Shown here: piece by piece, positions 1-59,944 of the stretch
Numbering within the stretch: position 1 is the first letter of the stretch
How the letters are laid out: every line of letters begins with the position of its first letter
From: Gammaproteobacteria bacterium
Lineage (GTDB): Bacteria > Pseudomonadota > Gammaproteobacteria > Tethybacterales > Persebacteraceae
Reading direction: 5' to 3'
Assembly (NCBI GenBank): GCA_965221835.1
Contig: OZ244916.1
Location: 654,477-718,476, forward strand
DNA length: 64,000 nucleotides
The notes under the pieces: model-generated
The model's database searches: none
What the model was told of the DNA's origin: nothing
Seen by the model: only the letters and a program-made list of their open reading frames with translations
Position numbers and translations under genes: made by a program

Positions 1-1226
1 ATCGCGGCGATTGGCGACGCGCGATGGACACATTGCATTCCACAAATAACTTTCCCGAATTTACCGGACGCGTCTGCCCCGCCCCGTGCGAATCCGCCTG
101 CACGCTAAATATTAACGACGATGCGGTAACAATTAAATCCATAGAACGCGCGATTGTCGACAACGCATGGAACGAAGGACAAATTGCACCGCTGCCGCCG
201 CAAACCAAAACCGGCAAACGAGTCGCCGTTGTCGGTTCCGGTCCGTCCGGACTCGCTTGCGCACAACAACTCGCGCGCGCCGGACACGCCGTTGAAGTGT
301 TGGAAAAAAACGAAAAACCCGGCGGACTTTTGCGTTTCGGCATTCCCGATTTTAAGATGGAAAAATATCTCATAGACCGCCGCATTATGCAAATGGAATC
401 CGAAGGCGCGGTTTTCAAAACCGGCATAAATGTCGGCGGCGACACGGACGCAAAAAAATTGGCGCGAGAATACGACGCTGTCGTTATCGCTTGCGGTTCC
501 GAAACGCCGCGCGATTTGCCGATTGACGGACGCGATTTGCGCGGCGTGCATTTTGCGATGGATTTTTTGCCGCAACAAAATCGCCGTGTCGCCGGATTGC
601 CGGTCGGGGCGGCGGACATTCTCGCCGCCGGAAAACATGTTGTCGTTATCGGCGGCGGCGATACTGGTTCCGATTGCATCGGTACTTCCAACCGGCAAGG
701 CGCAGCGGAAATTGTGCAATTTGAATTGTTGCCGCAACCGCCGCACGACGAAGACAAACCGCTGACATGGCCGCACTGGCCGCTAAAACTTCGCGCTTCT
801 ACTTCGCACGATGAAGGATGCGAACGCGAATGGGCGGTAATGACGAAAGCGTTTGTCGGCGACGAAAACGGCAATGTCCGCAAACTTCGCGGCGCGCGAG
901 TTGAGTGGAAAAACCAAAACGGAAAAATGAAAATGGAAGAAATTCCCGGCGGCGAATTTGAACTTCCCGCCGACCTCGTTTTGCTGGCGATGGGCTATAT
1001 GCATCCGACACAAAACGGAATGCTGTCCGATTTAAATTTGCAATTGGACGCGCGCGGCAACATTTTGGCGGACGACAAAAACTATAAAACTTCGGTAAAA
1101 AACATTTTCGCCGCCGGCGACTGCCGCCGCGGTCAATCCCTCGTCGTCTGGGCAATCCGCGAAGGACGACAATGCGCCCGCGCAGTAGACAAATTCCTCA
1201 CCGGCAAATCGGATCTGCCGCGATAA
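1..1226 (+). CDS. gltD: Glutamate synthase small (beta) subunit, 5'-partial. The reading frame is open from position 1. The encoded protein contains [24 protein letters not shown] and GGGDTGSDC motifs.
   Basis: The ORF translation matches GltD along its whole length, covering the 4Fe-4S region and both nucleotide-binding motifs. There is no stop codon between position 1 and the listed ATG at 24. Confidence 0.9.
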
Positions 1227-1249: not shown

Positions 1250-1876
1250 ATCATAATCCACACCCGCCCAAATGGGCGGGTGAATACTGACGAATTTCGA
1301 GTTGTGTGTGCGGCTGTTTCAATCCACACCCGCCCAAATGGACGGGTGAATGTTGGATAATCACATTCCCGACACTTTTGAGTTTCAATCCACACCCGCC
1401 CAAATGGACGGGTGAATCCACGAAGTCGCAGGGATATGAATCCAACGGTTTCAATCCACACCCGCCCAAATGGACGGGTGAATGACGAAATAAAACTCAA
1501 GCATCCGGTCTATGTTTCAATCCACACCCGCCCAAATGGACGGGTGAATCGGCAGTACGGTTGTTATAACTTCGGCATTGTTTCAATCCACACCCGCCCA
1601 AATGGACGGGTGAATTTCGGCGGCAGAGTCCTCATCTTGTTCTCGTTTCAATCCACACCCGCCCAAATGGACGGGTGAATGGCGGCGGCGGTTTTTCCTT
1701 GATTTTATCGTTTCAATCCACACCCGCCCAAATGGACGGGTGAATCAATTTCCTTCAATGCCATTTTCATATTGTGTTTCAATCCACACCCGCCCAAATG
1801 GACGGGTGAATAAAACCCGAATATGAAGCGGGTTTTCTTTGTTTCAATCCACACCCGCCCAAATGGACGGGTGAAT
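1250..1876 (-). CRISPR. CRISPR array of 10 repeats and 9 spacers. The repeat is 36 bp, GTTTCAATCCACACCCGCCCAAATGGACGGGTGAAT on the plus strand. Its reverse complement ends in GATTGAAAC, as type I-C repeats do. Spacers are 29-30 bp. The terminal repeat at 1250-1285 is degenerate.
   Basis: The repeat recurs with a 65-66 bp period at 1316, 1382, 1448, 1514, 1580, 1645, 1710, 1776 and 1841. Every spacer is unique. The repeat contains an internal palindrome, CACCCGCCCA / TGGACGGGTG. The array abuts the cas genes. Transcription is inferred to run on the minus strand, from the leader at 1877-1939. Confidence 0.95.
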
Positions 1877-1939
1877 AGCAAAATGTTAAAGATCTGTTAA
1901 TTCGCTTTTTTGCGAATAATCGGCGAATTAAAATTACTG
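1877..1939 (-). promoter_or_regulatory. AT-rich CRISPR leader lying between the cas7 stop codon and the first repeat.
   Basis: This is a 63-bp AT-rich stretch sitting directly between the cas7 stop at 1940 and the leader-proximal repeat, which ends at 1876. The repeat-degeneration gradient is consistent with this orientation. Confidence 0.6.
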
Positions 1940-2834
1940 TTATTTTAACCAATCTTCCAGCGTTACGCCCCAACTTTTCGGCGGCGTTTCGGCGGATACT
2001 TCAAAATCGGAAAAAGAACGCGGCGGCGCGGCGGCGTTTTTGCGCGCTACTTTTACCAAATCAAATAACTGATGCGCCGGTCTGTTGCCGAGTTTGCCAT
2101 CGTGCTTAAAAACATACAAACCGCGGACGGACATCATCCCGCGCGCCGCCGAACGGTCGTGTTCAAACATATTCCGCAACGCCTCCCAAAACAACGCCAA
2201 ATCTTCATCGGAAAAACCGATCCGCCGCCAAATGCGCCGAAATAAATCCGTGCGCGCGATACAGCGAATATGGAATCGTGTGCTTCCGCCCCATCGTCCG
2301 ATTGTCGCCGCTTTGTTTTTGCGCCTCCTTTTCGGTGGTGACCGCCATCCGCGTAATGGAATGTTCCAGCGAAACAATCGGCGCAACCGAACGCGCAAAA
2401 GTCATCTGCACCGGTCCGCGCACCTGTCCGCAATTGACGCCGGTGGACATCACCGCGCCGAAAGTGCGAATGTCGTAAAAATTGCCGCACATCCATTTGC
2501 GGAGATTTTTCGGTTCCCTTTCCGTTTTTGTCAACGCGTCATGGGCGCGCTGGTGTTGATTGTTCAGCACTGCCTTTTCTTTTACATAAATTTCATGGCG
2601 CGGCGACTCGCCGATTTTATAACTCTTCGGCTTGCCGTCCGCTTCGTCTTCCGCAAACTTCATTTCCACATAGTTGCGAATTTTGCGTTTCAGGCATACA
2701 TCGGTTACCAGCCCGTCGCCGGTTTCCGCGTCTATGCGCGGGTGATTTCCCGCATCGGGGTCGCCGTTCGGATTGCCGTCCAGCACATCAAAAAGCAATA
2801 CAAAATCATGCCGGTTTTGGATGGGATTATTCAT
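1940..2834 (-). pseudogene. cas7: Type I-C Cas7 (Csd2) with a broken reading frame. The N-terminal 209 aa and the C-terminal roughly 90 aa lie in different frames.
   Basis: The N-terminal part, [56 protein letters not shown], is a classic Csd2 start. That frame stops at 2205 after [15 protein letters not shown] second frame covering 2398 to 1940 carries the expected continuation, [27 protein letters not shown]...LFDLVKV. The junction lies near 2218-2226 in the sequence gcggcggatcgg. A strong RBS (aaggag) precedes the ATG at 2834. Confidence 0.7.
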
Positions 2835-4590
2835 TGTTATTCTCCTTTTTTGTGAAAAAATTCTGCCGCTGATGATAGTAGCCGAGGGCAAACAGCCCCT
2901 GCTCCTGCATTGTCAGTTGCGGCGGGAAATTGGCGAGTTTGCACATAATTTCGCCGACGGTTTTTTGGCGATTGACGGCAAGCCCGGGTTTGGCGTCTTT
3001 TAGTTTACTCAGATGGTGTTGGTGCAATTTTATCAGCGCGGGAAATGCCGCACCCGGCGACGATGACGCCGCACCGTAATAGCGGTCGCGAATGGTGGCG
3101 TTTATGCCGGGATTCGCGTCTTCTTGCAATTTTTCCAGCGCGGCAAACAACGCGCCCAGCCAATACCCCGGCGATTTAACTTCCGGATCCAGTTTCATAT
3201 CAATCTCCTTGTTGAGTTGCAAAGCGGGCGGCAATTGTTCCGCCCGATAAAATCGGTTTATGCAACCGCGCAAAAGCGCGGCGCGGTCCGGCGAAACATT
3301 TTCGCGTCGTTCCCCGTATTTTACGCCCGCGCGGCAACGATTGACCGCCGCCAGAAATGCCGTGCGCGGATACGGCGAATTTTGCAATATCGCCTGCATC
3401 ATTTCGCCGCCCAAATTGGGCGGGATATTGTCCGCCTTGCCTTGCACCGCCGTGGCAACCAGCAAACGAAATAGCCCCGGCGGGCGGGAGTCGTCCGCGC
3501 CGTCAATTTTAATGTCGTCAAAATGCCGCCGAATTCTTTCCGCAACATCTCCTACCGTTCCGTCGTGCCAAAAACGCACCGTCAACCGCACGCGATTCGC
3601 CCACAATCCCAGCACATAAAACGGCAAATCGCCTTCCGCGGCGTATGTTTTTCCGCTTCGGGGCGATTCGTACAATTTTTTCACCGCGGCAGTCCGGCGG
3701 TCGGGATTGTCTTCGGATGCGCCGCCAAATAAAACGCTAAAATCGGTTTCCAGTAGCGCGTCCTTTCCCGCCCAAAACACGGCGGTAGAATCGCCGACCT
3801 TGATTTTTTGTTCGCCAGTCAGCAGCATATTTAACGCGGCGGTGTATTTGTACATTGTCGCTTTTCCCACGGACGCATTTTTTGCCTTTGTTTTGCCGTA
3901 CGAATTAAACGCCGATTGCTTAAACGCGATAACTCCCGCGCCCGCCCCCGCACCGTTCACGCCGCGCACCGCGTTGTGCATATCCGGTATTTCGTCTTCG
4001 TCTCCGGAAATAATGCACCGTCCGTCCGGTTTCGCCGCCGCGCCGACATTTCGTTTTATTTCCGCCGCAACCGGCGGCGAATCGGAAACTATCGCATAAT
4101 CCGAATTTGCCAACTGAAACGACAAATACGCCAGACGCAAACGTTCATCACAAATTTCCGCCCACATCGGATCGCCGCGCACCGCGTCCATATCGGGATT
4201 TTGCAGAAACGCGACAACCGCGCGAACGCCCGAATCTTCGGCGACACTCTCCGGAATTTGCGTTTGTATTTTCCGCAAAAAACTTTCGCGGCGTTTTTTT
4301 GATACGGCGGCGGATGTGCCGCCGACTCCGAAAATATATTCCAAATTGTCGTACAATAAATTCGGATTTATCGCGCTTCCGCCGCGACACGACGGTTTAA
4401 TTGCAACTCTAACCGTATACTTCCCGCCGCGGTCTTTCGCATCGGCGCGGGTATCCTTAAAACCGGCAAACTCGCCGCTTTCGTTCAACACAATCAAAAA
4501 CGGAATTGGTTGATGTTCAAATCCCAGCGGCGGCATTTCGCCGCGCAACATTTTGCGGTCGTAATATTCCGTCAACGCGCGAACAGTCAT
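2827..4590 (-). CDS. cas8c: Type I-C Cas8c (Csd1) large subunit.
   Basis: The 587-aa translation begins [41 protein letters not shown], matching Csd1. It is positioned between cas5c and cas7, as in a canonical I-C operon. Confidence 0.85.
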
Positions 4591-5237
4591 TTGCGAATTT
4601 CCGCGCTATCGGGCGGCGGCAGATGAATCACGCCGTTTTGCATTTTCGCCCGAAACATCATCGGTTTCATTTCATCGGCAAAATCAATGTCGTACAACAT
4701 AAATCCCAAATCGCGGGAGTCGTCAATCGCCGCCCGTGCCGCCGCTTTCGTTCCCGGCGTTGCCAGACAAAACGCCGCCGAAAATTCGCGACATCCCAAA
4801 TACGGCTGATTAAAACACTGCCCTTTTTCCGCCCGCCGCGCAAATATTTCGGCGAATTTAACAATGCCGTCGCCCTCGCCCGCCTTGTCGGTCAATTGCA
4901 ACCGCGCATGCAAACGATACGCCACATCGCGCAAAAACAATCCCGCCCGCTGTTGCCGGTCTTCTTCCACATAAATTCCGCAACCCGCTTTGGACGGCGG
5001 ACGCGCAACACTCCCCACTTCGTTGCGGCGAAGATTAATCCACCGAATCGGTTTTAGTACTTCAATTTTTTCGGGAATCCACCTGATTGCCGGTTTCCAC
5101 ATAATCGCCTCAAAAATCGCCCGCGCCGCGGACGGAGTCATCACATCATAAGAAACGCGTTCCACTTTCATTTCCGGGCGCGTAAAGCAGGCAAAATCGC
5201 CCCAAACTTTCAGGCAAAAAGACGGCGACGATTTCAT
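4587..5237 (-). CDS. cas5: Type I-C Cas5c (Csd5d), the pre-crRNA-processing Cas5.
   Basis: The 216-aa translation contains FCLKVWGDFACFTRPEMKVERVSYDVMTPSAARAIFEAIMWKPAIRW, the Cas5d signature. Its stop overlaps the cas8c start by 4 bp. Confidence 0.9.
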   Translation of the reverse strand: MKSSPSFCLKVWGDFACFTRPEMKVERVSYDVMTPSAARAIFEAIMWKPAIRWIPEKIEVLKPIRWINLRRNEVGSVARPPSKAGCGIYVEEDRQQRAGLFLRDVAYRLHARLQLTDKAGEGDGIVKFAEIFARRAEKGQCFNQPYLGCREFSAAFCLATPGTKAAARAAIDDSRDLGFMLYDIDFADEMKPMMFRAKMQNGVIHLPPPDSAEIRK

Positions 5238-5245
5238 AACCGCGA

Positions 5246-7510
5246 TTATACTCCGCCCCGCCCGGGAATCGCAAACCCCGTTTCGTCCGAATAATTCGCC
5301 GCGCCCGATTCCGTCAGCACAAAAACGCCCGCCGTCAATTCTTCTATTTCGCCGCGACCGCGCATTTCGTCAAAATCTTTTTCCGGCACAGAAACCGAAA
5401 ACCGTTGCAACCCGCGCATCGTTGCACGCAAACGCGCACCTTCCGCCATCTGCAACGTTTTCCGCATTTTTTCGGAACCGGTATACCAAACGATAACCGG
5501 AATTTTTCCGTCTTCTTCAATAAACCGGAACTTCGCCGCCGCATCCCGAAATTGCATCTCGTCCGAACTCAACAGCCGGGAAATTCCTTTGTCATCAAAA
5601 TTGCGAATATCCCGATACAACAATTCAAAATAGCGGCGAAACTTGTCCGGCGTAAACATATCGTCGTCCGCGGCGAACAATTGCCGCATTTCTTGCACGA
5701 CCTGCCACCCCTGACGGATAAAACCCGGCGGCGGTATTTTCGGCGGCATAAACACGCGCAACTCGCCGCCGTCCGGCAATTTTCCTTCGCGGTTGCATCT
5801 TCCCGCCGCCTGCGCAATAGAATCCAATCCCGCCAGCGCGCGCCAGACGACCGGAAAATCAATATCCACGCCCGCCTCTATCAATGTCGTACTGACGACA
5901 ATCACTGGTTCGTTATTTTTCAATCGCGCCTTGATTTTTGCAATTTGTCGCGCGCGATGTTCGCCGCACATCAGCGCGGACAAATGAAAACATTCGGCGG
6001 CACCCCGTCCGATTGCGGACATTCGCGCCTTCGTTTTTTCGTACAAATCGCGGCACTCGTTCCGGCTGTTGACGATGCAAAGCGCGGATTTGTTTTCGCA
6101 AAGTTTTACGGCGATTTCGTCCCATTCCGTTTTTGACAAATCCCAGCGCGCGCGTACGCGCCGGAATTGGTCGCGGCGGAACAATGTTTCCGGCTGTTCG
6201 CAAACTTCGCGCGGCGCGCTGTTCAACGCCGCTTTCGCTTTCCGCAACGATTCCGCCCGAAACGCCGGTTGCGTAGCGGTGCAAAAAACAAAACTCGTTT
6301 TGTAAAACGCCGTCAATTCTTCAATCGCCGCCAAAGTCGGCGCGATCAATTCCAGCGGCAACGTTTGCGCTTCGTCCAAAATAACGACCGAATCGGCGAT
6401 GTTATGCAGTTTGCGACATTTCCCCGGCGCGGCGGCGAAAAGCGATTCAAAAAATTGCACATTCGTCGTAATGACAATCGGTGCGTCCCAATTTTCGGTT
6501 GCCAGCCGATTTTTGTACGCCGCGCGGCGCGCCTGTTCGTCTTCGGATTCTTCGCCGCGAATGTTGGAATGATGTTCCACGACATTGTCGTCGCCGAAAA
6601 CGCCGCGAAAAATATCGGCGGTTTGTTCAATAATGGAAGTGAACGGAATGGCGTAAATAATTCGCCGTTTGCCGTGCGCCGCGGCATGCGCCAGCGCGAA
6701 CGCCATGGACGACAATGTTTTGCCGCCGCCGGTCGGCACCGTGAAACTGAACAATCCCGGCGACTGTTCGCCCGCCGCAACGCATTGCGTCAAAATGTCG
6801 GCGCGGATTTTGTCAATCGCCGTTTTTTCCGCGTCCGTCTTAAAACCTTTCATATAGCCGTCAAACTTTTCGCGCAACGCGGAAATTTCCGCATAATCGC
6901 CGCGCACCGGCGGAACAGGCGAAGAAGATTTTTCCGCATGCAACCGGTCGGCATCCACCAAACACGAAAACAACATTCGCGTCCACAAAGAAAGTCGAAT
7001 CCAAGAAGGGGCGTTTTCATGTCCGGTGTTGCGGCGCAAACACGCCAAACCGGGAATTGTCGCGTTGCGCACAAATTCGGGAAAATGTTTCTCGTTTTTG
7101 CGCGCCTTATCCAGCCATTCGCCTTCGCGGAAAATTCGTTCTTCCAAACTCGCGCCTTTCGCATCGCCGTCTCCGCAATTCGGCAAGCCGGTGTGATGTC
7201 CGAAAATGACAAACGACAACAACTTCGCCGCGCATTTTTCTTCCGCATTTTTTGCGAGAAAGTTTTGCGCGTACAATCCGCCCGCCGAGGAATGTTTAAT
7301 TTTTCCGCGCGGCGCATTAATTTCGCCGCGTAAATATTGTTGAAACTCATCGCCGTATTTGCCGAGGTCGTGCAATCGCCCCGCCAACGTCGCCCATTCT
7401 TTCGCGCCAAAAACGGCGGCAAATCCTCCCGCATTTTTACCGACCGAATTTAAATGTTCCGCCAAATCGCATTTGGTGTTTTCGGAAAAATGCGAAAAAA
7501 ATGTTTTCAC
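5246..7510 (-). CDS. cas3: Cas3 HD-nuclease/helicase with a GTG start.
   Basis: The 754-aa translation has an N-terminal HD domain (HDLGKYGDEFQ), a Walker A motif (VPTGGGKT) and a DEAD-like VILDEAQ motif. The GTG start lies 4 nt after the mpl stop codon. Confidence 0.9.
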   Translation of the reverse strand: MKTFFSHFSENTKCDLAEHLNSVGKNAGGFAAVFGAKEWATLAGRLHDLGKYGDEFQQYLRGEINAPRGKIKHSSAGGLYAQNFLAKNAEEKCAAKLLSFVIFGHHTGLPNCGDGDAKGASLEERIFREGEWLDKARKNEKHFPEFVRNATIPGLACLRRNTGHENAPSWIRLSLWTRMLFSCLVDADRLHAEKSSSPVPPVRGDYAEISALREKFDGYMKGFKTDAEKTAIDKIRADILTQCVAAGEQSPGLFSFTVPTGGGKTLSSMAFALAHAAAHGKRRIIYAIPFTSIIEQTADIFRGVFGDDNVVEHHSNIRGEESEDEQARRAAYKNRLATENWDAPIVITTNVQFFESLFAAAPGKCRKLHNIADSVVILDEAQTLPLELIAPTLAAIEELTAFYKTSFVFCTATQPAFRAESLRKAKAALNSAPREVCEQPETLFRRDQFRRVRARWDLSKTEWDEIAVKLCENKSALCIVNSRNECRDLYEKTKARMSAIGRGAAECFHLSALMCGEHRARQIAKIKARLKNNEPVIVVSTTLIEAGVDIDFPVVWRALAGLDSIAQAAGRCNREGKLPDGGELRVFMPPKIPPPGFIRQGWQVVQEMRQLFAADDDMFTPDKFRRYFELLYRDIRNFDDKGISRLLSSDEMQFRDAAAKFRFIEEDGKIPVIVWYTGSEKMRKTLQMAEGARLRATMRGLQRFSVSVPEKDFDEMRGRGEIEELTAGVFVLTESGAANYSDETGFAIPGRGGV

Positions 7511-7514
7511 TTTT

Positions 7515-8861
7515 TTAGATGTTTTTCACCATTTCCGCCACGGTTTGCGGGAGGTTGGCGAAGTCGCCGTTGGACATTAATATTATGCAGTCGTTTGTGC
7601 GGATTTCGTGGTGCAAGTAGTCGGCGGCGGTGGCGGCGGTCGGGAAAACTTTTGTTTTTTCGGGCGGCAGAAATGTCGCCAACCATTCTTGTTCTCCGAC
7701 TGCGACAACTTTGTGTGCCGCAGCGAAAGCGTTCGGTAAACGCGCGCGCAATGCGCCCGCTTTCATCGTGTTGGAACGCGGTTCAAACACTGCGACAATT
7801 CGTTTTTGCGGATATTCCGCCGCCGCTGCTTCCAAAGTTTTGCGGTAGGCGGTCGGATGATGTGCGAAATCGTCGTAGACCAAAATTCCGTTCGCGTCTG
7901 CAAGTTTTTGCATTCGCCGCAACGGCGGACGAAATCCTTGCAAATAATCCGGCAGTTTGCGCACATCCGCTCCCGCATAATGTGCGGCGGCAGCGGCGGC
8001 GAGAATATTGTCGCGATTCGCTTCGCCGAACATCGGCGGAACAAACGCGCACATTTCTTCGCCGCGATAATAAACGCGCATTATTTTTCCGTCTTTGTCG
8101 CGTCTTTGCCATTCGCCGCCTTTTCCGAATTGCGACAGCGGCGAATATATTCCCGCCTTCGCCGCCGCGCGCAAATAACGCGAACGGGCGCGCATAATCA
8201 CCCGCCCGTTGCCGGGAACGCAACGCAACAAATAATGAAACTGTCGCGCGATTTCGTTTTCATTACGATAAATATCTGCGTGATCAAATTCTAAATTATT
8301 TAACAACGCGATGTGCGGGCGGTAATGCAAAAACTTCGGACGTTTATCAAAAAACGCCGTGTCATATTCGTCCGCTTCAACTACAAACCATTCGGAATTG
8401 CCGCTGCGTGCGGAAACGCCGAAGTTTGGTGCGATTCCGCCTGCCAAAAATCCCGGCGACAAACCGGCGCGTTCCAAAATCCATGCCAGCAATGCTGTCG
8501 TTGTTGTTTTGCCGTGCGTGCCGGCAACCGCTAATACTTTTCTGTCGGCGAGAATATTTTCGCCAAGCCATTGCGCCGCCGAAATATACGGACGGCGTTC
8601 CGCCAACACCGATTCCACCAACGGATTGCCGCGCGAAACCGCGTTGCCGACAATATACAAATCGGCGGGACGGTCAACGACTGTCGCCTCGTATCCTTCG
8701 TATAACTTCGCGCCCGATTGTCGCGCCGCATCGCCGAAAGGCGGATAAAATGCGCGGTCGCTGCCGCAAACAGTGAATCCTTTTTCCGCCGCCAGTTGTG
8801 CAACCCCCGCTCCCAATGCGCCGGCGATTCCGATGAAATGCAAATGTTTCATCGCCGCCAA
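7515..8861 (-). CDS. mpl: UDP-N-acetylmuramate:L-alanyl-gamma-D-glutamyl-meso-DAP ligase.
   Basis: The 448-aa translation shows the Mur ligase fold, with GIAGALG and GTHGKTTTT motifs and an Mpl-like C-terminus. Confidence 0.9.
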   Translation of the reverse strand: MAAMKHLHFIGIAGALGAGVAQLAAEKGFTVCGSDRAFYPPFGDAARQSGAKLYEGYEATVVDRPADLYIVGNAVSRGNPLVESVLAERRPYISAAQWLGENILADRKVLAVAGTHGKTTTTALLAWILERAGLSPGFLAGGIAPNFGVSARSGNSEWFVVEADEYDTAFFDKRPKFLHYRPHIALLNNLEFDHADIYRNENEIARQFHYLLRCVPGNGRVIMRARSRYLRAAAKAGIYSPLSQFGKGGEWQRRDKDGKIMRVYYRGEEMCAFVPPMFGEANRDNILAAAAAAHYAGADVRKLPDYLQGFRPPLRRMQKLADANGILVYDDFAHHPTAYRKTLEAAAAEYPQKRIVAVFEPRSNTMKAGALRARLPNAFAAAHKVVAVGEQEWLATFLPPEKTKVFPTAATAADYLHHEIRTNDCIILMSNGDFANLPQTVAEMVKNI

Positions 8862-11738: not shown

Positions 11739-12251
11739 ATGCAAAAAAATATGTCCGAAATGCGCGCGCGATTTCGCCGCTATCTATCTTCGCTTTTGCT
11801 TGCAGAATTGTGCCGGGGAATGGCGCTGACTTTCCGGCAGATGTTCCGCCGCAAAATCACCGTGCATTTTCCCGAAGAAAAAACACCGCGCAGCCCCCGA
11901 TTTCGCGGACTGCACGCCTTGCGCCGCTATCCGAACGGCGAAGAACGATGCATCGCTTGCAAATTGTGCGAGGCGGTTTGTCCGGCGATGGCGATTCATA
12001 TCGCTTCCGAACAACGCGAAGACGGCAGCCGCCGCACTACTCAGTACGACATTGATTTAACCAAATGCATTTTTTGCGGAATGTGCGAAGAGGCGTGTCC
12101 CGTTGATGCAATTGTAGAAACGCATGTTTTGGAATATCACGGCGAACGGCGCGGCGATTTGTACTACACAAAAGAAATGCTGCTCGCCGTGGGCGATAAA
12201 TACGAAGCGGAAATCGCTTCCGCCCGCAAAACCGATGCCGCTTATCGCTAA
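11739..12251 (+). CDS. nuoI: NADH-quinone oxidoreductase subunit I (2x[4Fe-4S] ferredoxin). It is isolated from any nuo operon.
   Basis: The translation contains [31 protein letters not shown] and [18 protein letters not shown], and is near-identical to NuoI over its full length. A TATAAT box lies about 20 bp upstream. Confidence 0.85.
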
Positions 12252-14418
12252 ACTTTTCCGCGCAACGGCGGCGGCGATTGTTCTCGGCATATTGTCGCCA
12301 TCTTTCGCCGAACCCGTCTCGGCGTATTCGCCGGAAAAAGAAATAGAAGAATTGGAACAGCGGTTTGTGCGCCAAGAAATTCTCGCCTTGCAGCGGGTGG
12401 AAGATGTGGAAACGCGGATTGAAATATTGGACCGCCATTTCAATCGCGTTTTTTTGATTTTGGGATTATCGGCGGCACTTGCGTTGATGCTTTTCGCCGC
12501 CCATCAACGCAGTCGCAATCGCTTAAATACCGAACGCTTAAATCGTGCCGTGCGCGAAGCCGATATGTTGCGAGACGATATTCGCCGCGAATTGCATCGC
12601 CCGGAAACGGAGTTTTTGCGCATCGGACATTTTTTGCGAAGAATGATGCGCGAATCGCTGGACGCCAAACCCGCCGAACGACATTTTTCGGAAATTCGTG
12701 CCATTATTCGCGACCCTAATGTGCCGGTGTCGCTGCATTATATGGCGCAAATTTTGCTTTTTGAACACGATTCGCGTTGGCGAGATGCCGAACATGTTTT
12801 GGAACAACTTCGGCAAATGGATCCCGAAGATCCTTTCGTACTTTTGCATTTATTTCATGTACATACCCGCATTTCCGAAGGTTCGGGCGATTCGTACGAC
12901 CGCAAACGCCATCGTCAAACCGCAAATCAATACTACGCCCAATTTGCAGTTATCGCGCAAACAAAAGACATTCCCGCCTCTCCGGCAACGGCGAAAAAAT
13001 CCCCGCCCGCCCCGAAAACGCCGCCCCCGGCAATTGCCGCCGCCGAATCCGAATCCGAAAACGCTTCCAAAACTGCCGAAAACGATTCCGAATTTGATTC
13101 CGAATCCGCCGCCGAAAACATTACCAAAAACGCCGCTGAATCCAAATCCAAATCCGCCGCCGAATCCGAATCCAAATCCGCCGCCGAATCCGAATCCGAA
13201 TCTGCATCCAAAATTGCCGAAAACGTTTCTGAATCTGATTCCGAATCCGTTGCCAAATCCGCCGCCGAATCTAAATCCAAAACTTCCGAAAACGTTTCTG
13301 AATCTGATTCCGAAAACATTGTCAAAAACGCCGCTGAATCCGAATCCAAATCCGCCGCCGAATCTAAATCCAAAACTTCCGAAAACGTTTCTGAATCTGA
13401 TTCCGAATCTGCTTCCGAAAACATTGTCAAAAACGCTGTTGAATCTGAATCCAAAACTTCCGAAAATGTTTCTGAATCTGATTCCGAAAACATTGCCGAA
13501 AACGTTTCTGAATCTGAATCCAAAACTTCCGAAAAAGATTCCGAAAACGATTCTGAATCTGAATCCGAATCTGGTGCGGAAGTGCAAACGAATATTTCCA
13601 AACCGCAATCGGAAATTGTGCATACAAAACCCGCGCAATCGCCGCCGGTTAAAACCGAATTCGCTCCTCCTCAAATTGTACCGCCCAAACCGCCGAAAAC
13701 GGCGGAAACAAAGCCCGCTCCGAAAATGCCGCCGTCATTGCCGTCCGCCGCAAACGGCAAAAAACGTCCCGCCGAAAATTTATTAATGAAAAAAATCGGC
13801 AAACTATCATGGCGGGGAATCGGCGGCGCAATCAAAAACAAAACCGTCAATTTAATCGGCGAAGCAACGAATGTTGCCGGAAAAATTAACAACGGCGCGA
13901 ACGGCGACATCCCGCCGTTTTTGCCGGTGCCCGCAATTTCCGAATTGCCGGAAAAAAAAGGAACGGCAGAAAGCGAAATGTGGAAATGCATTCGCGCCGG
14001 TGATTTGGCAATGGCGCAAGCCGCCGCAGTTGCGAATATGCGTCATCGCAATCGTTTGATAGACCGCGCGTTAATTTCTTATGCGCAAGCGCAAGGACAC
14101 AAAACTAACGAAACTTTGTATTTGAATTGGGGATTGTCTTTGCTCGGCAAGGCGTTGCATTTGCCGCTCAAAAAACGCGAACCATTTTTTAATGCCGCCA
14201 TAGATAAATTTTTGGCGGGCAATGTTATCAGTCCGCACCGTTTTGATTTTTCGCTGGCGACTTTATACGCTATCATCGGGCGCGAAACCGAGTGCAAACA
14301 ATGGCTTGCCACAGCGCGCGAATCGGGAACGCTGAATTTGGAATCGTTGCATCATGCGCCCGATTTTGACGGCGTGCGCAATCAGCCGTGGTTTGCCGAA
14401 TTCATGCGCGACGAATGA
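12235..14418 (+). CDS. Hypothetical membrane protein. It has an N-terminal signal/anchor, a coiled coil, a second transmembrane segment, an acidic Ser/Glu-rich tandem-repeat region, a Pro/Lys-rich linker and a C-terminal helical (TPR-like) domain.
   Basis: The 727-aa reading starts at the ATG at 12235, overlapping the nuoI end. Hydrophobic segments [14 protein letters not shown] and [18 protein letters not shown] are present. Repeats of the form [31 protein letters not shown] recur. A proline-rich stretch, [28 protein letters not shown], follows. Confidence 0.6.
13020..13600 (+). repeat. Imperfect in-frame tandem repeats of roughly 69-bp units, encoding Ser/Glu/Lys-rich acidic repeats.
   Basis: The motif gaatc(c/t)gaatccaaa(a/t)c... 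recurs many times. Antisense and alternative-frame ORFs here are artefacts of this repeat: 12698-13786 (PNPNPP-rich) and 12850-13674 (GFGFGG-rich). Confidence 0.8.
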
Positions 14419-25273: not shown

Positions 25274-26599
25274 TTAGATATATCCGAGTTCGTGCAGCCG
25301 TTTGCGGGCGTTTTCCATTGTGCGCGTTGATTTAATGGTGTTGCACGAACCGCAAAGAAGTTGCAAATTTCCGTCCACATCCGGACCGCCTTTTGCGCGG
25401 GGAATAATATGATCTAAATGAAAATAACGCGGTTCAAAATGGTGTTTGCAAAGATTGCAATTACCCCCCTGTCGTCCGTACAAAATTTGGCGAATATCCC
25501 GGCTGCGGATTTGTTTATAATCGGTGCGCATCGGGCAGTCGTTTTTAATGTTGCGGTGATGCACTTTCCGCTCGCCTTCGCCGAGTTTGCCTTTTTCGGT
25601 TTCCGATTTCAGCCGGGCTTTTACCAAACTTGCCGCCTTTTCGGCAACATCAATTCCAATCCATTTTCGGTCCAATCTTTCGGCGGCGATGCAAGTTGTC
25701 GCGCAACCGCAAAACGGATCAATAACCAAATCGCCTTCGTTGGAGGATGCAAGAACGATTCTTTCCAAAAGCGCGAGTGGTTTTTGCGTCGGGTATCCGG
25801 TGCGTTCGGGGGAATTCGGACCGAATGTAATTTCCCACCAATCTTCCGGAACTTTTCCCGCCGAATGCCGTGCCGCCAATTTTTCGGGCGGATCCCCCTT
25901 CCATATTCCGGATCCTCCGCGATTTCTTTCGGGGATATTTTTCCGTTCGGGCATGCGGGAAAGTTTGTAAGGCACGCGAACGGAATCGGCGTTAAAAACA
26001 TAATTCTCCGTTTTGCTATACCGGAAAATTAAGTCATGTTTTCGCGGAAAATCTTTTTTTGCGCTGCTTGTTGACGCATAACACCAGACAATTTCGTTGC
26101 GAAAATTGTTGTCGCCAAAAACAATATCCATAAGAAGTTTCAGCGAATGCGACATCGTCGGGTCGCAATGCAAATAAATGCTGCCGGTCGGTTTCAGCAG
26201 TCGCCGCATTTCCATCAATCGCGCCGCCATAAACGATAAATACGCCATTTCCGCATTGCCAACGATTTCGCCCATCGTTTCCAAAAAGCGCACGATTTTT
26301 TTCGCCGTTGCGCCGTCTATCAGCGGATTCCCGTCCGCCGCCGCCGCAATCAATTCGTCAAACGCATACAACTCCGCGTACGGCAAATACGGATTTTTTT
26401 CGTCCGCCGCGCTGTCCCAACCCCAAATATCCTTAAATCCAAACTCGGCGGAACCGCCTTTTCCAATCGGAAAAACAAACTTTTTATTGAACGGCGGATC
26501 TAGATAAATTAAATCCACCGTTTCGGAATTCATCGCGCGCATCACCTCCAAATTGTCGCCAGTAAACAAAGTCCGATTTTCTATCTGTTTTTTACTCAT
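25274..26599 (-). CDS. DNA methyltransferase (beta-class N6-adenine/N4-cytosine family, DPPF motif) fused to a C-terminal HNH nuclease domain. This is copy 1.
   Basis: The translation contains DLIYLDPPFN (motif IV), then ERTGYPTQKP and VIDPFCGCATT (motif I), then C-terminal CNLCKHHFEPRYFHLDHIIPRAKGGPDVDGNLQLLCGSCN (HNH). The start is placed at MSKKQIENR, which has an RBS (aaaagga). Confidence 0.8.
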   Translation of the reverse strand: MSKKQIENRTLFTGDNLEVMRAMNSETVDLIYLDPPFNKKFVFPIGKGGSAEFGFKDIWGWDSAADEKNPYLPYAELYAFDELIAAAADGNPLIDGATAKKIVRFLETMGEIVGNAEMAYLSFMAARLMEMRRLLKPTGSIYLHCDPTMSHSLKLLMDIVFGDNNFRNEIVWCYASTSSAKKDFPRKHDLIFRYSKTENYVFNADSVRVPYKLSRMPERKNIPERNRGGSGIWKGDPPEKLAARHSAGKVPEDWWEITFGPNSPERTGYPTQKPLALLERIVLASSNEGDLVIDPFCGCATTCIAAERLDRKWIGIDVAEKAASLVKARLKSETEKGKLGEGERKVHHRNIKNDCPMRTDYKQIRSRDIRQILYGRQGGNCNLCKHHFEPRYFHLDHIIPRAKGGPDVDGNLQLLCGSCNTIKSTRTMENARKRLHELGYI

Positions 26600-26757
26600 A
26601 ACATTCCTTTTCAATTCCGATATCCGCAAAAACTAATTATACCCGAATCCCGCCGCCGTTAAATGGTAATCGTGCGGGGTGATTTTCATTGTTCATCATT
26701 TCCGTGGCGGGCGGAGTCGGGGGCTTAATGGTGGGAAGATTTGTTTTGGTCATTTTT

Positions 26758-34957: not shown

Positions 34958-35135
34958 ACCACATCACGCGAGATCTTTCCGACTCTGTCGGGTGGCTCGT
35001 GAATACAATACCCGATAACGGAGGGAATAATTAACCCGCCGGGGGAATAAACGGGGACATTCAGGAAGGTCTGCGTGTGATGTGGTAATCCTCCCGACTT
35101 TTTGGGGGACTTTGTCATTACCGCAAAGGACTACT
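34958..35135 (+). promoter_or_regulatory. Long structured 5' leader of the second MTase-HNH gene. A long-range stem (ACCACATCAC at 34958-34967, GTGATGTGGT at 35067-35076) encloses about 100 nt. The leader shows partial sequence similarity to the leader of copy 1.
   Basis: A 10-bp perfect long-range inverted repeat is present, with internal hairpins (CCGACTCTGTCGG). The motifs CCGACTC and TAACGG.GGG.ATAATT also occur in the leader of copy 1, which spans 26757-26600 on the minus strand. Confidence 0.4.
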
Positions 35136-36461
35136 GTGAACCAAGCGCAAATAGAGAACCGGACTCTGTTTACCGGCGACAATTTGGAAGTGATGCGCGC
35201 CGTCAATTCCGAGACGGTGGATTTGATTTATCTGGATCCGCCGTTTAACAAAAAATTCGTTTTTCCGATTGGAAAAGGCGATTCCGCCGAATTCGGATTT
35301 AAAGATATTTGGGGATGGGATAGCGCACCGGATGAAGGCAATCCGTATTTGCCGTACGCGGAGTTGGCGGCGTTTGACGAACTTGTGGCGGCGGAAGCGG
35401 ACGGCAATCCGTTAATAGACCGCAAGATGGCGAAAAACACCGTCCGCTTTTTGGAAACGATGGGACAAATCGCCGGCGAAGCGGAAATGGCGTATTTGTC
35501 GTTTATGGCGGCGCGTTTAATTGAAATGTGGCGGTTGCTGAAACCGACCGGCAGCATTTATTTGCACTGCGACCAAACAATGTCGCACTCGCTTAAACTT
35601 TTGATGGATATTGTTTTCGGTGAAAATAATTTCCGCAACGAAGTTATTTGGTGTTATGTCGGTGGCGGAAACGCAAAAAACGCTTTTAACAAAAAACATG
35701 ACACGGTCTTTTTTTACACGAAACAAAAAAATCGTTCGTTTTTTAATTGGAAAGATGTTGCTATGCCATATAATAATATTCCGCTTACGGCGCAATGGCG
35801 CAAAGGGTTTACAAACAGACAAGAAGCGGAAAAACGCGCCTTGGCAAAATATAAAGATGGCAAAGCGCGATATGATTGGTGGACGGATATTCCATCTTAT
35901 GGAACGGCTACGCGGAATCCCGAAAGAACCGGCTACCCGACTCAAAAACCGGTTTTGCTTTTGGAAAGAATCATAAAAGCGTCCAGCAACGAAGGCGATT
36001 TTGTTCTTGACCCGTTTTGCGGATGCGCGACAACTTGCGTTGCCGCCGAAAGATTAAACCGCCATTGGTGCGGAATTGATGTTGCCGAAAAAGCGGCGCA
36101 ACTCGTTCGCGCCCGCCTTCTTGCCGAAACAAAACAAGGCAAACTCGGCGACAAAGTACCGCAAGTGCATCACCGCGATTTCGGCAAAGGCGATTTTCCG
36201 ATGCGCACCGATTTGGGCGATTCGCGCAGTAAAAATATCCGCATAGTTTTGTTTGGAAATCAGGAAGGCAAATGCAATCTTTGTAAACGCCGTTTTGATT
36301 TGCGCGATTTTGAGGACGATCATATTATTCCGCGCAAAAAAGGCGGACCGGATGTTGACCGCAATTTGCAATTGCTTTGCAGTTCGTGCAACCGAATTAA
36401 ATCCACGCGCACAATGGAACAAGCCCGCAAACGACTGCGCGAATTGGGATACGCCGCTTAA
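35136..36461 (+). CDS. DNA methyltransferase (DPPF, beta-class) fused to a C-terminal HNH nuclease. This is copy 2, with a GTG start.
   Basis: It is about 70% identical at the protein level to the 25274-26599 product. The N-terminal 200 aa are near-identical, and the DNA is about 85-90% identical there. HNH motif: CNLCKRRFDLRDFEDDHIIPRKKGGPDVDRNLQLLCSSCN. An RBS (aaagga) lies 5 nt before the GTG. Confidence 0.8.
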   Translation: MNQAQIENRTLFTGDNLEVMRAVNSETVDLIYLDPPFNKKFVFPIGKGDSAEFGFKDIWGWDSAPDEGNPYLPYAELAAFDELVAAEADGNPLIDRKMAKNTVRFLETMGQIAGEAEMAYLSFMAARLIEMWRLLKPTGSIYLHCDQTMSHSLKLLMDIVFGENNFRNEVIWCYVGGGNAKNAFNKKHDTVFFYTKQKNRSFFNWKDVAMPYNNIPLTAQWRKGFTNRQEAEKRALAKYKDGKARYDWWTDIPSYGTATRNPERTGYPTQKPVLLLERIIKASSNEGDFVLDPFCGCATTCVAAERLNRHWCGIDVAEKAAQLVRARLLAETKQGKLGDKVPQVHHRDFGKGDFPMRTDLGDSRSKNIRIVLFGNQEGKCNLCKRRFDLRDFEDDHIIPRKKGGPDVDRNLQLLCSSCNRIKSTRTMEQARKRLRELGYAA

Positions 36462-42121: not shown

Positions 42122-43555
42122 TCAGAAACGATGAATCGCGTTTATTTGGAATCTGGCGTTTTCGGTGAAATCTTTTGCGTTTTCCCAGCGGAATCCGGCG
42201 GAGGGGAGAATCGTCCAGCCGTCATAACGGAAATTGCCTTGCAGATTTAACTCGTTGCGAGTTTCCGTTTCGCCTTTGTCATATTCGGAGTGCAGGCGAT
42301 AGACGGGGGAAAACATCATTAAACTCCCGTCTATATCCGCCGACAGCATAAATGAGGAGTTAGCCGTCTCGCCTGCAACGGATTCGGAAAATGCCGCTGT
42401 AAATAAATCGCCGTTATATTTTCCGCCCGATGTGTAGCGGAAATCACCGAAATCGCCGTTTGCGTTTGTTTGTTTTGCGGTGTAATACAAATGCCAATTG
42501 TCTTTGCGGAAATCCGCCCGTCCGCCGACATTTGCGTAATAGCCGCTTTCGGTTATGGAATAGCCGAAATCGGGCGACATATTAAAAGACGGAACGCCGC
42601 CTGCCAAAAATACCGCTATCACTCCGACAGCCAAAAGTCCGGTAGCGGTATTGATAGATTTTACCCTTCTCTCCTTATTATCCGCCCGATTTTGCGGTGT
42701 TTGCGTTGTCGGATTTTGCGTTTCCGGCGGATTAGTTCCCGTTTCCGTGTTGCCGTCTTGCGGATTTTCCGTTTCCGTGTTGTCGTCTTGCGGATTTGTT
42801 TGACAAATTCCGGCGTCGTCTCTTGTTTCAGTATCCAAACATGCGTCTACGCAAACGCCGTTAACAAAATCGGGAGTCGCCCCCGGGCAATCGGCGGCGG
42901 ATTCAATTGCACGGCAAGAAAGTCCGCCTGTTTCCAAAATCGGCAATTCATCGGTTGCACATTCGCATGCATCGCCCGCCTCGTTTAAGTTTGCAGTCGT
43001 GCCATCGCAAAAATCGGTTTCAATTATCGTATCGCAAGTTGTCGTTCTTCCCGCATCCGCCGCCGTGAAAGTAAACACATCGGTCAGCGGGATAGCATTT
43101 TCGGTTATATCCCGTGCAACGACAAGACAATCGCAGTTTGCGGGATCTGCACACTGATTCATTGCATGTGTGTGTGCCTCTGCTGCGGTGTCGCCTAGTC
43201 CCTCAATAGTTGCTACATCTCCTAAATTGGGTATGGATAAATCTGCATAAACGGCAAAATATTCCTCACCATTAACATTTCTTGCTACTGCTGAACAAGT
43301 ACTAGCAGTATCAGGATGAGATTGACATGTTAAAGCTGAATGAGCTACTGCAAGACGTTCCGTTTCTCCCATAACCTCCTCTGCAGGATAGCCGACAGCA
43401 ACACCGATAATAAGTATTGTTGGGTCTGGGCTGCCCGGACTAAAATCAGTATCAAATCCGGCAGTAGCAGCCCCTTCTGCATTTGCGGAAATGTTAGACA
43501 ATCCCGCCGCAAAAAAGACGGCGGCGATGATGATTTTATTGATTGTGTTTTTCAT
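42122..43555 (-). CDS. Hypothetical secreted or surface protein. It has a signal peptide, a Cys/Asp/Thr-rich central region, and a C-terminal region rich in aromatic/Gly beta-strands that ends in RF, which is outer-membrane-barrel-like.
   Basis: The start is at MKNTINKIIIAAVFFAAGLSNISANA with a strong RBS (gaggag). The C-terminus, ...FRWENAKDFTENARFQINAIHRF, has a terminal Phe. The listed 632-aa ORF over-extends into the upstream repeat array. Confidence 0.6.
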   Translation of the reverse strand: MKNTINKIIIAAVFFAAGLSNISANAEGAATAGFDTDFSPGSPDPTILIIGVAVGYPAEEVMGETERLAVAHSALTCQSHPDTASTCSAVARNVNGEEYFAVYADLSIPNLGDVATIEGLGDTAAEAHTHAMNQCADPANCDCLVVARDITENAIPLTDVFTFTAADAGRTTTCDTIIETDFCDGTTANLNEAGDACECATDELPILETGGLSCRAIESAADCPGATPDFVNGVCVDACLDTETRDDAGICQTNPQDDNTETENPQDGNTETGTNPPETQNPTTQTPQNRADNKERRVKSINTATGLLAVGVIAVFLAGGVPSFNMSPDFGYSITESGYYANVGGRADFRKDNWHLYYTAKQTNANGDFGDFRYTSGGKYNGDLFTAAFSESVAGETANSSFMLSADIDGSLMMFSPVYRLHSEYDKGETETRNELNLQGNFRYDGWTILPSAGFRWENAKDFTENARFQINAIHRF

Positions 43556-43684
43556 GGTTTTGCTCCTCTGATTAAAAATGTCTGCGAAAGTATAACACAT
43601 TCCGCCCGAATCAACAAAAAAACGGGCGGGTTCGGCAAGAAATGCGTAAATTGCTGATTTCCCGCCTTTTTTCTGCATTTCCGT

Positions 43685-43936
43685 GCGTTCGGAAATGTTT
43701 TCAGAGCGTTCCAAAATGTTTTCAGAGCGTTCGGAAATGTTTTCAGAGCATTCCGAAAAGTTTTCAGAGCGTTCGGAAATGTTTTCAGAGCATTCCGAAA
43801 TGTTTTCAGAGCATTCCGAAATGTTTTCAGAGCGTTCGGAAAAGTTTTCAGAGCGTTCGGAAATGTTTTCGGAGCGTTCGGAAATGTTTTCAGAGCATTC
43901 GGAAATGTTTTCAGAGCGTTCGGAAAAGTTTTCCGA
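43685..43936. repeat. Twelve tandem copies of a 21-bp unit (GCGTTCGGAAATGTTTTCAGA and variants), 130-380 bp upstream of the 42122-43555 gene.
   Basis: The units are head-to-tail with an exact 21-bp period and minor variants (gcattccgaaat, gcgttccaaaat). The ORFs 43642-44052 and 43683-43967 are translation artefacts of this array. Confidence 0.9.
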
Positions 43937-44035
43937 GACCTCGCAAAACATTTGCGGGGTTTTGTGAACGCCCTTTTTTGCCGAAAATTTTCGGCTGTGG
44001 TACAATTGGCATTCGCACATTTGGAATTGAAATTA

Positions 44036-56657: not shown

Positions 56658-57776
56658 AAATTCCGAATTTCATCGGAATGGTAGAAGTTGGAAATTAGGA
56701 AAATAAAATTCACCATTCCCGTGAACGCGGCGGAATTCCGCAAAAAAACCCCGTCATTCCCGCGAAAGCGGGAATCCATTACGGGCGATTAATTTTAGAA
56801 TTTCCGCAAATTTTACGCGAAAATTAAATTTGAAAATTCCCGCATTTTTTCGCAAAAAACGAAGTGAAAGCGCGAATTTTACGCGAAAATTAAATTTGAA
56901 ATTCCCGCGAATTTTAAGCGAAAAACCCCCGTCATTCCCGCGAAAGCGGGAATCCATTACGGACGATTAAATTTGCAATTCCCGCAAATTTTACGCGAAA
57001 ATTAAGTTTGAAATTCCCGCACATTTTTTTGTGAAAAACGAGGTGAAGGCGGGAATTTGTCGGTAAAAATGGATTCCCGCTTTCGCGGGAATGACGGCGG
57101 GAATCCGCACATTTTACGCGAAAATTAAGTTTGGAATTTCCGCAAATTTTACGCAAAAAACCCCGTCATTCCCGCGAAAGCGGGAATCCATTACGGGAGA
57201 TTAATTTTAGAATTTCCGCGAATTTTACGCGAAAATTAAGTTTGGAATTTCCGCGAATTTTTTCGCAAAAAACGAGGTGAATGCGAGGGTTTGTCAGTAA
57301 AAATGGATTCCCGCTTTCGCGAGAATGACAAGGTGAAACCGCAAATTTTATGCGAAAATTAAGTTTCGCGAATTTTACGCAAAAAAACCCCGTCATTCCC
57401 GCGAACGCGGGAATCCATTACGGGAGATTAATTTTAGAATTTCCGCAAATTTTACGCGAAAATTAAGTTTGGAATTTCCGCATTTTTTCGCAAAAAACGA
57501 GGTGAAAGCGCGAAAACGAGGTGAATGCGGGAATCCATTTTGTCGCGAAAATTAAGTTTGGATTCCCGCTTTCGCGGGAATGACGGCGGGAATCCGCACA
57601 TTTTACGCGAAAATTAAGTTTGGAATTTCCATATTTTTTCGCAAAAAACGAGGTGAATGCGGGATTTTGTCGGTAAAAAATTCCCGCTTTCGCGGGAATG
57701 ACAAGGTGAAACCGTGAATTTTAAGAAAAAATTAAGTTTGGAATTTCCGTGCATTTTTTCGCGAAAAGGGTGGGAA
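56658..57776. repeat. NIME-like array of about 1.1 kb. It contains multiple dRS3 units (ATTCCCGCGAAAGCGGGAAT) in both orientations, separated by RS-like blocks of about 100-150 bp.
   Basis: At least 8 dRS3 copies are present. The block GATTAATTTTAGAATTTCCGCAAATTTTACGCGAAAATTAAGTTTGGAATTTCCGC recurs. The many small ORFs here are artefacts. Confidence 0.85.
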
Positions 57777-59090: not shown

Positions 59091-59944
59091 TTTTCCAAAT
59101 CCTCGCGCCATCGCCGCCGCAATGCCCGCGCCGCCGAAAACTTTTGATTGAGCAATTCGCCATCGCCCGCGCGAATCGCCTCGTCCAATATGTCCAGTTG
59201 CCGCCGAAATCGCGCCGTTGCCGCCAGCAATGCATCGCCATTTTGCAGACAAATGTCGCGCCACATAACTGAATTTGAACCGGCGATTCGCGTAAAATCA
59301 CGAAATCCGCCCGCCGCAAAACGCAACGCCGATTCGCCTTCGGAATCGGCGCGCAACGATTCCATCAGCGCGAACGAAAGCAAGTGCGGCAGATGACTGA
59401 CCGCCGCAAAAACCGAATCGTGTTGCGCCGCCGTCATTTCCGTCACACGCGCACCGGTTCGTTGCCACGCCGATTTTGCAATTGCCGCAGCGTCCGCATC
59501 CGATTCCGCCGGACACATCACCACCCAGCGGTCGGCAAACAACTCCGCGAAAGATGCAGCAAAACCGCTATCTTCTCCGCCGGCAACCGGATGAGACGGC
59601 ACGAAACGCCCGGCTTTTTCGCCCAAATATTCCGCCGCAACCGCCGCCGCCTGCCGTTTGCAACTGCCGCAATCAAACACCGTTGTGCGCGGAGAAATAA
59701 CATCGGCGATTGCGGCGAAAATGTCGCCGAACGCCCCGACCGGCGTTGCGATAAAAACTTCATCGGCAACACAAACCGCCGCCGGTTCGGAATAAACTTC
59801 GTCCGCCGCACCCGCCGCCCGCGCCGCCGCCCGTGTTTCGGCGCAAATATCCGCGCCGATAACGCGCATTCCCGCCTTTTTGCACGCCCGCGCAAATGAC
59901 CCGCCGACAAGTCCCAAACCGATAACGCCCGCCGTGCGATTCAT
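59087..59944 (-). CDS. tyrA: Prephenate dehydrogenase.
   Basis: The translation begins MNRTAGVIGLGLVGGSFA (Rossmann fold). It overlaps the aroA start by 4 bp. Confidence 0.8.
   Translation of the reverse strand: MNRTAGVIGLGLVGGSFARACKKAGMRVIGADICAETRAAARAAGAADEVYSEPAAVCVADEVFIATPVGAFGDIFAAIADVISPRTTVFDCGSCKRQAAAVAAEYLGEKAGRFVPSHPVAGGEDSGFAASFAELFADRWVVMCPAESDADAAAIAKSAWQRTGARVTEMTAAQHDSVFAAVSHLPHLLSFALMESLRADSEGESALRFAAGGFRDFTRIAGSNSVMWRDICLQNGDALLAATARFRRQLDILDEAIRAGDGELLNQKFSAARALRRRWREDLEK

Follow-up and report, generated by a model that had tools for sequence, protein, structure and literature searches.

A type I-C CRISPR-Cas locus with short spacers and no linked adaptation genes in a Persebacteraceae chromosome

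Can a type I-C CRISPR-Cas locus persist, and still gain spacers, when no adaptation genes are linked to it? That effector modules may come without adaptation genes is an accepted fact in types III, IV, and VI and in type I systems borne by transposons, whereas nuclease-competent I-C loci of this kind have been read as wrecks; a review lists adaptation-less loci mainly among type IV, III, and VI systems and the CRISPR-associated transposons (CASTs) (PMC8616872). The question is raised by a locus in a stretch of 64,000 nucleotides (nt) from a member of the Gammaproteobacteria (order Tethybacterales, family Persebacteraceae; contig OZ244916.1 of assembly GCA_965221835.1, positions 654,477 to 718,476 of the forward strand), which is referred to below as the window. 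Between mpl and gltD, the minus strand of the window carries cas3, cas5c, cas8c, and cas7, followed by a leader and a CRISPR array. We consider it fairly probable that, at the level of the lineage, this locus represents a maintained interference-only I-C variant whose short spacers are supplied by an unlinked integrase.

The cas genes were identified by NCBIfam and Pfam profile scores above the curated cutoffs. Cas8c reached 460.6 bits with TIGR01863 (cutoff, 218.65) and 500 bits with PF09709, and it matches the I-C Cas8 chains of the Protein Data Bank (PDB) entries 8g9u and 8dej. Cas5c, a predicted member of the Cas5d-type endonuclease family that cleaves precursor CRISPR RNA (pre-crRNA), scored 193 bits with TIGR01876 (cutoff, 85). 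Cas3 lies above the cutoffs of both the HD model TIGR01596 and the helicase core model TIGR01587 and retains the motifs LHDLGK (HD), PTGGGKT (helicase I), and DEAQ (helicase II). For Cas7/Csd2, whose gene is split into two open reading frames (ORFs) in the window, the N-terminal part scored 269.9 bits with TIGR02589, and the intact protein of related strains matches PDB chain 7kha_B (E value, 3e-113). A preliminary description of this DNA, made from the sequence alone, had assigned the ORFs at 2827 to 7510 to Cas8c, Cas5, and Cas3, and the profile search agrees. The four cas genes are contiguous, leaving no room for a cas6 gene. The gene cas7, which ends with the stop codon at 1940 to 1942, overlaps cas8c by 8 nt. 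An ATG at codon 465 of cas8c, with the motif AAGGAG 7 nt upstream, would open a putative cas11c frame with a product of 123 amino acids (aa); the Cas11 chains in the PDB (124 aa) align to Cas8c residues 466 to 586, and cas8c probably harbors such an internal Cas11c start.

The array contains nine identical 36-nt repeats (1316 to 1876; minus-strand sequence ATTCACCCGTCCATTTGGGCGGGTGTGGATTGAAAC) and a degenerate terminal copy at 1250 to 1285, and no repeat match was found in 100 shuffles. Its predicted fold is a 9-bp stem capped by a 4-nt loop, after which comes an 11-nt tail, UGGAUUGAAAC (-17.2 kcal/mol; z = -3.5). This is the form expected of type I-C, namely, a stable hairpin with an 11-nt 3' tail that ends in ATTGAAAC. 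Profile scores and repeat form thus bear out the earlier assignment to type I-C with the order cas3-cas5c-cas8c-cas7-leader-array, and we could also confirm the 10 repeats and the junction at which a 63-nt leader (1877 to 1939) separates the cas7 stop at 1940 from the end of repeat 1 at 1876. In its gene order, the lack of cas6, the Cas11c inside cas8c (putative here), the hairpin with the 11-nt handle, and an HD-helicase Cas3, the locus resembles the canonical I-C (Dvulg) systems of Desulfovibrio (Nitratidesulfovibrio) vulgaris and Pseudomonas aeruginosa (Cascade, PDB 7KHA, 8DEJ, and 8G9S).

What sets the locus apart is the absence of the cas4-cas1-cas2 genes that canonical I-C loci carry between cas7 and the array. 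The search for these genes covered the window and two sister strains, L001 (a 158-kb contig) and L002 (a circular genome of 1,999,211 bp), which are independent long-read assemblies from the European Nucleotide Archive (ENA) sample ERZ25072152 and encode the exact Cas8c protein of the window. A tblastn search with canonical I-C Cas4, Cas1, and Cas2 gave no match (best E value, 0.05). With hidden Markov models (HMMs) of cas1, cas2, and cas4, built from nine canonical loci, the best E value was 0.14 when all six reading frames, taken stop to stop, were searched in the window, L001, and L002. PADLOC was applied to 40 of the remaining 43 long ORFs of the window, up to position 59899, and matched no Cas protein. 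All three approaches agree with the earlier statement that the window contains no cas1, cas2, or cas4, and gene calls in the sister strains extend it by 10 kb past gltD and by another 10 kb past the window's right edge. In total, about 84 kb of a genome of about 2 Mb is free of these genes.

This layout is conserved in relatives. Both sister strains show the same arrangement, mpl-cas3-cas5c-cas8c-cas7-array-gltD, with genes about 99% identical to those of the window; their mpl-gltD interval holds the same adaptation-less locus and no full I-C locus. Among 5.8 billion proteins, the nearest other Cas8c (48% identical) is encoded on contig L086, which is 98.9% identical to contig L209 from a different sample. 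In both of these contigs, a leader of about 90 nt lies between cas7 and the 36-nt repeats, and the same cas7-leader-repeat junction occurs on L210, a contig from a TARA metagenome that shares 80% nucleotide identity with L209 and encodes a Cas7 that is 69% identical to that of the window. Compared with the window, the L086 proteins are 53% (Cas3), 68% (Cas5c), 48% (Cas8c), and 66% (Cas7) identical; in the same tblastn search, all four were closer to the window than their counterparts from canonical loci, and the Cas8c proteins of the window and L086 (P0001 and P0002) are reciprocal nearest neighbors. The junction is therefore identical in layout in six assemblies (window, L001, L002, L086, L209, and L210) from at least five samples. 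In homologue searches for further members, Cas7 proved too conserved to discriminate, and with Cas3 the L086 organism alone stood out, the next match being L211, which, like the other close Cas8c or Cas3 relatives L003, L005, and L087, is canonical. The window locus belongs to a small I-C clade that is characterized by cas7, a short AT-rich leader, 36-nt repeats, and 29- to 30-nt spacers.

The spacers and the leader also differ from those of canonical loci. (i) Each of the clade's 32 complete spacers, including the nine of the window, is 29 or 30 nt long. This is outside the type I-C range of about 33 to 37 nt; some 4,300 spacers in 36-nt-repeat arrays of the same family at canonical loci measure mostly 35 to 37 nt (mode, 36), and those of the canonical relatives L003 and L005 measure 33 to 38 nt. 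The shift amounts to about 6 nt. (ii) The leaders of canonical I-C loci from diverse organisms (L003, L005, L101, L109, L134, L146, L162, L170, and L205) share the motif GGTTCGCGCAA about 45 to 55 nt upstream of repeat 1, which may be a leader element for the integrase or a host factor. The leaders of the clade are short (63 to 90 nt), AT-rich, and devoid of GGTTCGCGCAA; that of the window is nearly identical in L001 and L002. (iii) The repeat family itself, described by ATTCRCCCGT-N10-GGGYGTGGATTGAAAC, is abundant in Joint Genome Institute (JGI) metagenomes, where the degenerate pattern retrieved more than 120 arrays. All of these belong to canonical loci of other organisms with 36-nt spacers and, where flanks exist, follow a full cas3-cas5c-cas8c-cas7-cas4-cas1-cas2 set. 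An exact 30-mer of the window repeat had no match in the JGI metagenomes, and the window repeat had none in GTDB species genomes.

That the arrays have remained active is indicated by the turnover of their spacers. Not one of the 27 spacers of the window, L001, and L002 is common to these strains, although the synonymous divergence (dS) among them is only 0.03 to 0.05 in housekeeping genes and 0.007 to 0.02 in cas genes. Similarly, L086 and L209 show 98.9% identity as far as repeat 1 reaches, yet their first spacers are different. Window spacer 7 (1418 to 1447) and L001 spacer 7 (13148 to 13176) have an overlap of 16 nt in opposite orientation, which suggests independent capture from one target region. 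The complete turnover between strains that are about 99% identical implies that acquisition continued after the loss of the linked adaptation genes. Since all members lack linked genes and the junction is common to the clade, parsimony places the loss before the acquisitions, and this sequence of events is our main argument for adaptation in trans. Two further observations concern the same three strains. Each array consists of exactly 10 repeats and 9 spacers (window, 1250 to 1876; L001, 12717 to 13343; L002, 12717 to 13342) despite the lack of any common spacer, which may be due to chance or to some constraint on size. In addition, the dS of the cas genes is lower than that of the flanking housekeeping genes, which hints at a recent recombination or sweep of the cas operon.

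A mechanism consistent with these data can be proposed. An interference module made up of Cas3, Cas5c, Cas8c with its internal Cas11c, and Cas7 would reside with its own array in a chromosomal housekeeping operon. The pre-crRNA would be transcribed either from the leader or by read-through of the cas operon, and Cas5c would cleave it at the base of the repeat hairpin to leave an 11-nt 5' handle. The 30-nt guide would then be held by a Cascade (CRISPR-associated complex for antiviral defense) that falls short of the canonical seven Cas7 subunits by one, and targets would be degraded by Cas3. New spacers would be inserted by a Cas1-Cas2 integrase whose genes lie outside the locus, either on the genome or on some co-resident element, and whose ruler is 30 nt instead of about 36 nt. 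The predicted composition of the complex follows from simple arithmetic. In type I complexes, every Cas7 subunit accounts for 6 nt of the guide, and the I-C Cascade entries in the PDB contain seven Cas7 chains each (42 chains in six entries); from these values and the spacer shift of about 6 nt, we infer a six-Cas7 Cascade in the clade.

As to the source of the integrase, it is conceivable, if doubtful, that the clade is served by a heterologous enzyme that follows a rule of 36-nt repeats and 30-nt spacers, as type II or V-A modules do, and that the effector has coadapted by way of the six-Cas7 Cascade. If this were true, a type I nuclease system would depend permanently on another CRISPR type for its memory. 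Acquisition in trans has precedents, since II-C serves VI-B (10.1101/2020.02.20.957498) and I-E serves IV-A3 (10.1101/2023.06.23.546257). The VI-B/II-C pair of Flavobacterium columnare and the IV-A3/I-E pair resemble the window locus in that an effector with its own array lacks adaptation genes and has strain-variable spacers. They differ from it in that their effectors are of type VI or type IV and their donor systems were identified, whereas the effector of the window is a full nuclease-competent I-C system with Cas3.

Several points weigh against the reading of a maintained variant with adaptation in trans. (i) A Cas1-Cas2 pair has not been found in the roughly 84 kb surveyed. (ii) The gene cas7 is broken in the window strain. 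(iii) The ratios of nonsynonymous to synonymous divergence (dN/dS) of the cas genes among the window, L001, and L002 range from about 0 to 0.45; as values compatible with constraint they speak for the reading, but they derive from very few substitutions. (iv) The 5' flanks deduced from the overlapping spacer pair are CAG and CCG and not the TTC of type I-C, although these are two data points only. (v) A blastn comparison of the 27 spacers with GenBank phages and PLSDB plasmids gave no protospacer, and three spacer-derived patterns gave no match in IMG/VR. Against the window and all loci retrieved, the spacers gave chance-level matches only (13 to 17 nt), and no self-target was present in the window. 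(vi) The clade comprises three lineages, two of which are known from short contigs only.

The alternative that survives best holds that a dedicated, I-C-derived cas4-cas1-cas2 module has been relocated elsewhere in the chromosome, so that the locus is split and nothing is borrowed from another type. In favor of such a module, the repeat clearly belongs to the I-C family and, at 36 nt, is as long as in canonical relatives, and integrases are usually repeat specific. Mere relocation would not obviously change the spacer length by 6 nt or remove the leader motif, and we regard this possibility as tentative. It is a sub-case of the unlinked-integrase reading and inseparable from it on present data.

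A decaying remnant would be expected if a canonical I-C locus had lost cas4-cas1-cas2 by deletion and were now eroding, with the array as a fossil. Evidence in its favor is the lesion in cas7. Where L001 reads GATACCGG, the window reads GATCGG, so that 2 nt are missing between 2219 and 2220 (two gaps in an 897-nt alignment) and the frame is broken. The preliminary description was right that cas7 carries a frameshift, but the cause is this 2-nt deletion and not a slip in a homopolymer. The deletion is absent from L001 and L002, in which cas7 is intact (298 aa), and it is either a genuine recent lesion of the strain or a local assembly error. If it is real, the locus may recently have been inactivated in the window strain by a truncated Cas7, with interference probably lost very recently. 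There is also a precedent for decay, namely, the "I-C d2" variant of 87 Bacillus cereus-group strains, which likewise lacks cas1, cas2, and cas4 and was interpreted as inactivated (PMC7242445). However, that species also contains complete loci, whereas the layout of the window is conserved across divergent lineages and is accompanied by a shifted spacer length and by turnover between close strains. Several findings are difficult to reconcile with decay of the lineage: all genes and motifs other than cas7 are intact; the junction is kept down to 66 to 69% Cas7 identity, and erosion would not preserve it so far; wholly different spacers in near-identical strains are not explicable by loss alone; and the repeats are perfectly homogeneous. 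We therefore consider decay unlikely as an account of the clade, and the 2-bp deletion makes it plausible for the window strain alone. The preliminary description had left the choice between an interference-only variant and decay open; the conserved junction, the intact genes elsewhere, and the turnover favor the former for the lineage.

The same description had likened the locus to the minimal interference-only systems borne by mobile genetic elements. Short arrays and missing adaptation genes are indeed typical of plasmid, phage, and transposon systems (PMC8616872), and the locus shares both features with the I-F3 and I-B CASTs. However, Tn7-like genes flank the CASTs, which have no Cas3, whereas the Cas3 of the window locus is intact and transposon genes are absent from it. 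Its setting is that of a resident: the GTG start of cas3 lies 4 nt after the mpl stop (7508 to 7517), within a methyltransferase-rnhA-dnaQ-mpl operon and on the same strand, and the cas operon appears to be fused to this housekeeping operon. The site is identical in the chromosomes of three strains, the G+C content of the cas genes (53.3%) is close to that of the window (52.8%), and no integrase, transposase, or conjugation family was found among the Pfam-annotated genes within 10 kb in L001 and L002. The nearest plasmid or phage Cas8c is at most 34% identical, and the ATTCRCCCGT-N10-GGGYGTGGATTGAAAC pattern had no match in viral contigs. A mobile origin of this kind is thus very improbable, and the likeness drawn earlier is not supported. 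An Mpl-based search for relatives retrieved only a 62%-identical gammaproteobacterial metagenome-assembled genome from a sea cave, which keeps the methyltransferase-dnaQ-mpl synteny without cas genes after mpl, and the cas insertion therefore seems specific to the window lineage. Finally, an assembly artefact that collapsed or dropped cas4-cas1-cas2 at the site has nothing in its favor beyond the odd layout and a cas7 frameshift showing that the sequence may hold at least one error, and it can be dismissed almost entirely, since six assemblies, made independently of one another and drawn from at least five samples, agree in the junction.

I-C loci without cas1, cas2, and cas4 are already known, but a limited literature search turned up no account of a conserved I-C clade whose spacers are 30 nt long and whose adaptation module is not linked, and this short-spacer clade with active turnover appears to be a new variant. 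With a conserved layout, dynamic arrays, and a spacer shift of exactly one Cas7 step (6 nt), the clade offers a natural test case for (i) how the ruler of the integrase sets the length of Cascade, (ii) whether type I effectors can depend on unlinked or foreign integrases, and (iii) how the choice of the protospacer-adjacent motif (PAM) at acquisition is matched with PAM reading at interference without Cas4. A naturally shorter I-C Cascade could also serve genome engineering. The coordinates of the locus and its neighbors are compiled in Table 1.

Table 1. Features of the I-C locus and its flanking genes (positions in the window)
Feature	Position	Strand	Remarks
gltD (3' part, cut by window edge)	1..1226	+	TIGR01317, 581 bits; 479 aa in L001; convergent flank of array
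CRISPR array, 10 repeats and 9 spacers	1250..1876	-	
Leader, 63 nt, AT-rich	1877..1939	-	Between cas7 stop and repeat 1
cas7 (csd2)	1940..2834	-	Frame broken by 2-nt deletion between 2219 and 2220
cas8c (csd1), 587 aa	2827..4590	-	TIGR01863 and PF09709
Putative internal cas11c frame, 123 aa	2827..3198	-	ATG at cas8c codon 465
cas5c, 216 aa	4587..5237	-	TIGR01876
cas3 (HD nuclease-helicase fusion), 754 aa, starts with GTG	5246..7510	-	TIGR01596 and TIGR01587
mpl, housekeeping	7515..8861	-	TIGR01081, 440 bits; directly upstream of cas3

Two of the canonical-type I-C loci inspected show features of their own. In L211, cas3 starts 19 nt after folA, and in L004 a PhdYeFM antitoxin/PIN toxin pair (6621 to 7357) lies between cas3 and cas5c. 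Elsewhere in the window, an Rfam scan detected two tRNAs only. The window also encodes two paralogs that resemble type II/III DNA methyltransferases (25274 to 26629, minus strand, and 35082 to 36461, plus strand; PADLOC MTase_II, E value of about 1e-60) and a protein of the N6_Mtase/Eco57I family (62247 to 63803, minus strand); no partner nuclease was identified for any of them. Three repetitive regions were also noted. Degenerate, GAATCC-rich tandem repeats of 24, 69, and 105 nt (13037 to 13564) lie inside a 764-aa ORF (12124 to 14418, plus strand) that has no defense-family match. Inside the coding sequence of the ORF at 42122 to 44020 (minus strand), 12.4 tandem copies of a 21-nt unit with 89% matches occupy positions 43678 to 43937. 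The third region, at 56744 to 57533, is intergenic and consists of repeats of 35, 178, and 234 nt nested in one another, with GCGAAAGCGGGAATCC-type units; it may represent a family of repetitive extragenic elements.

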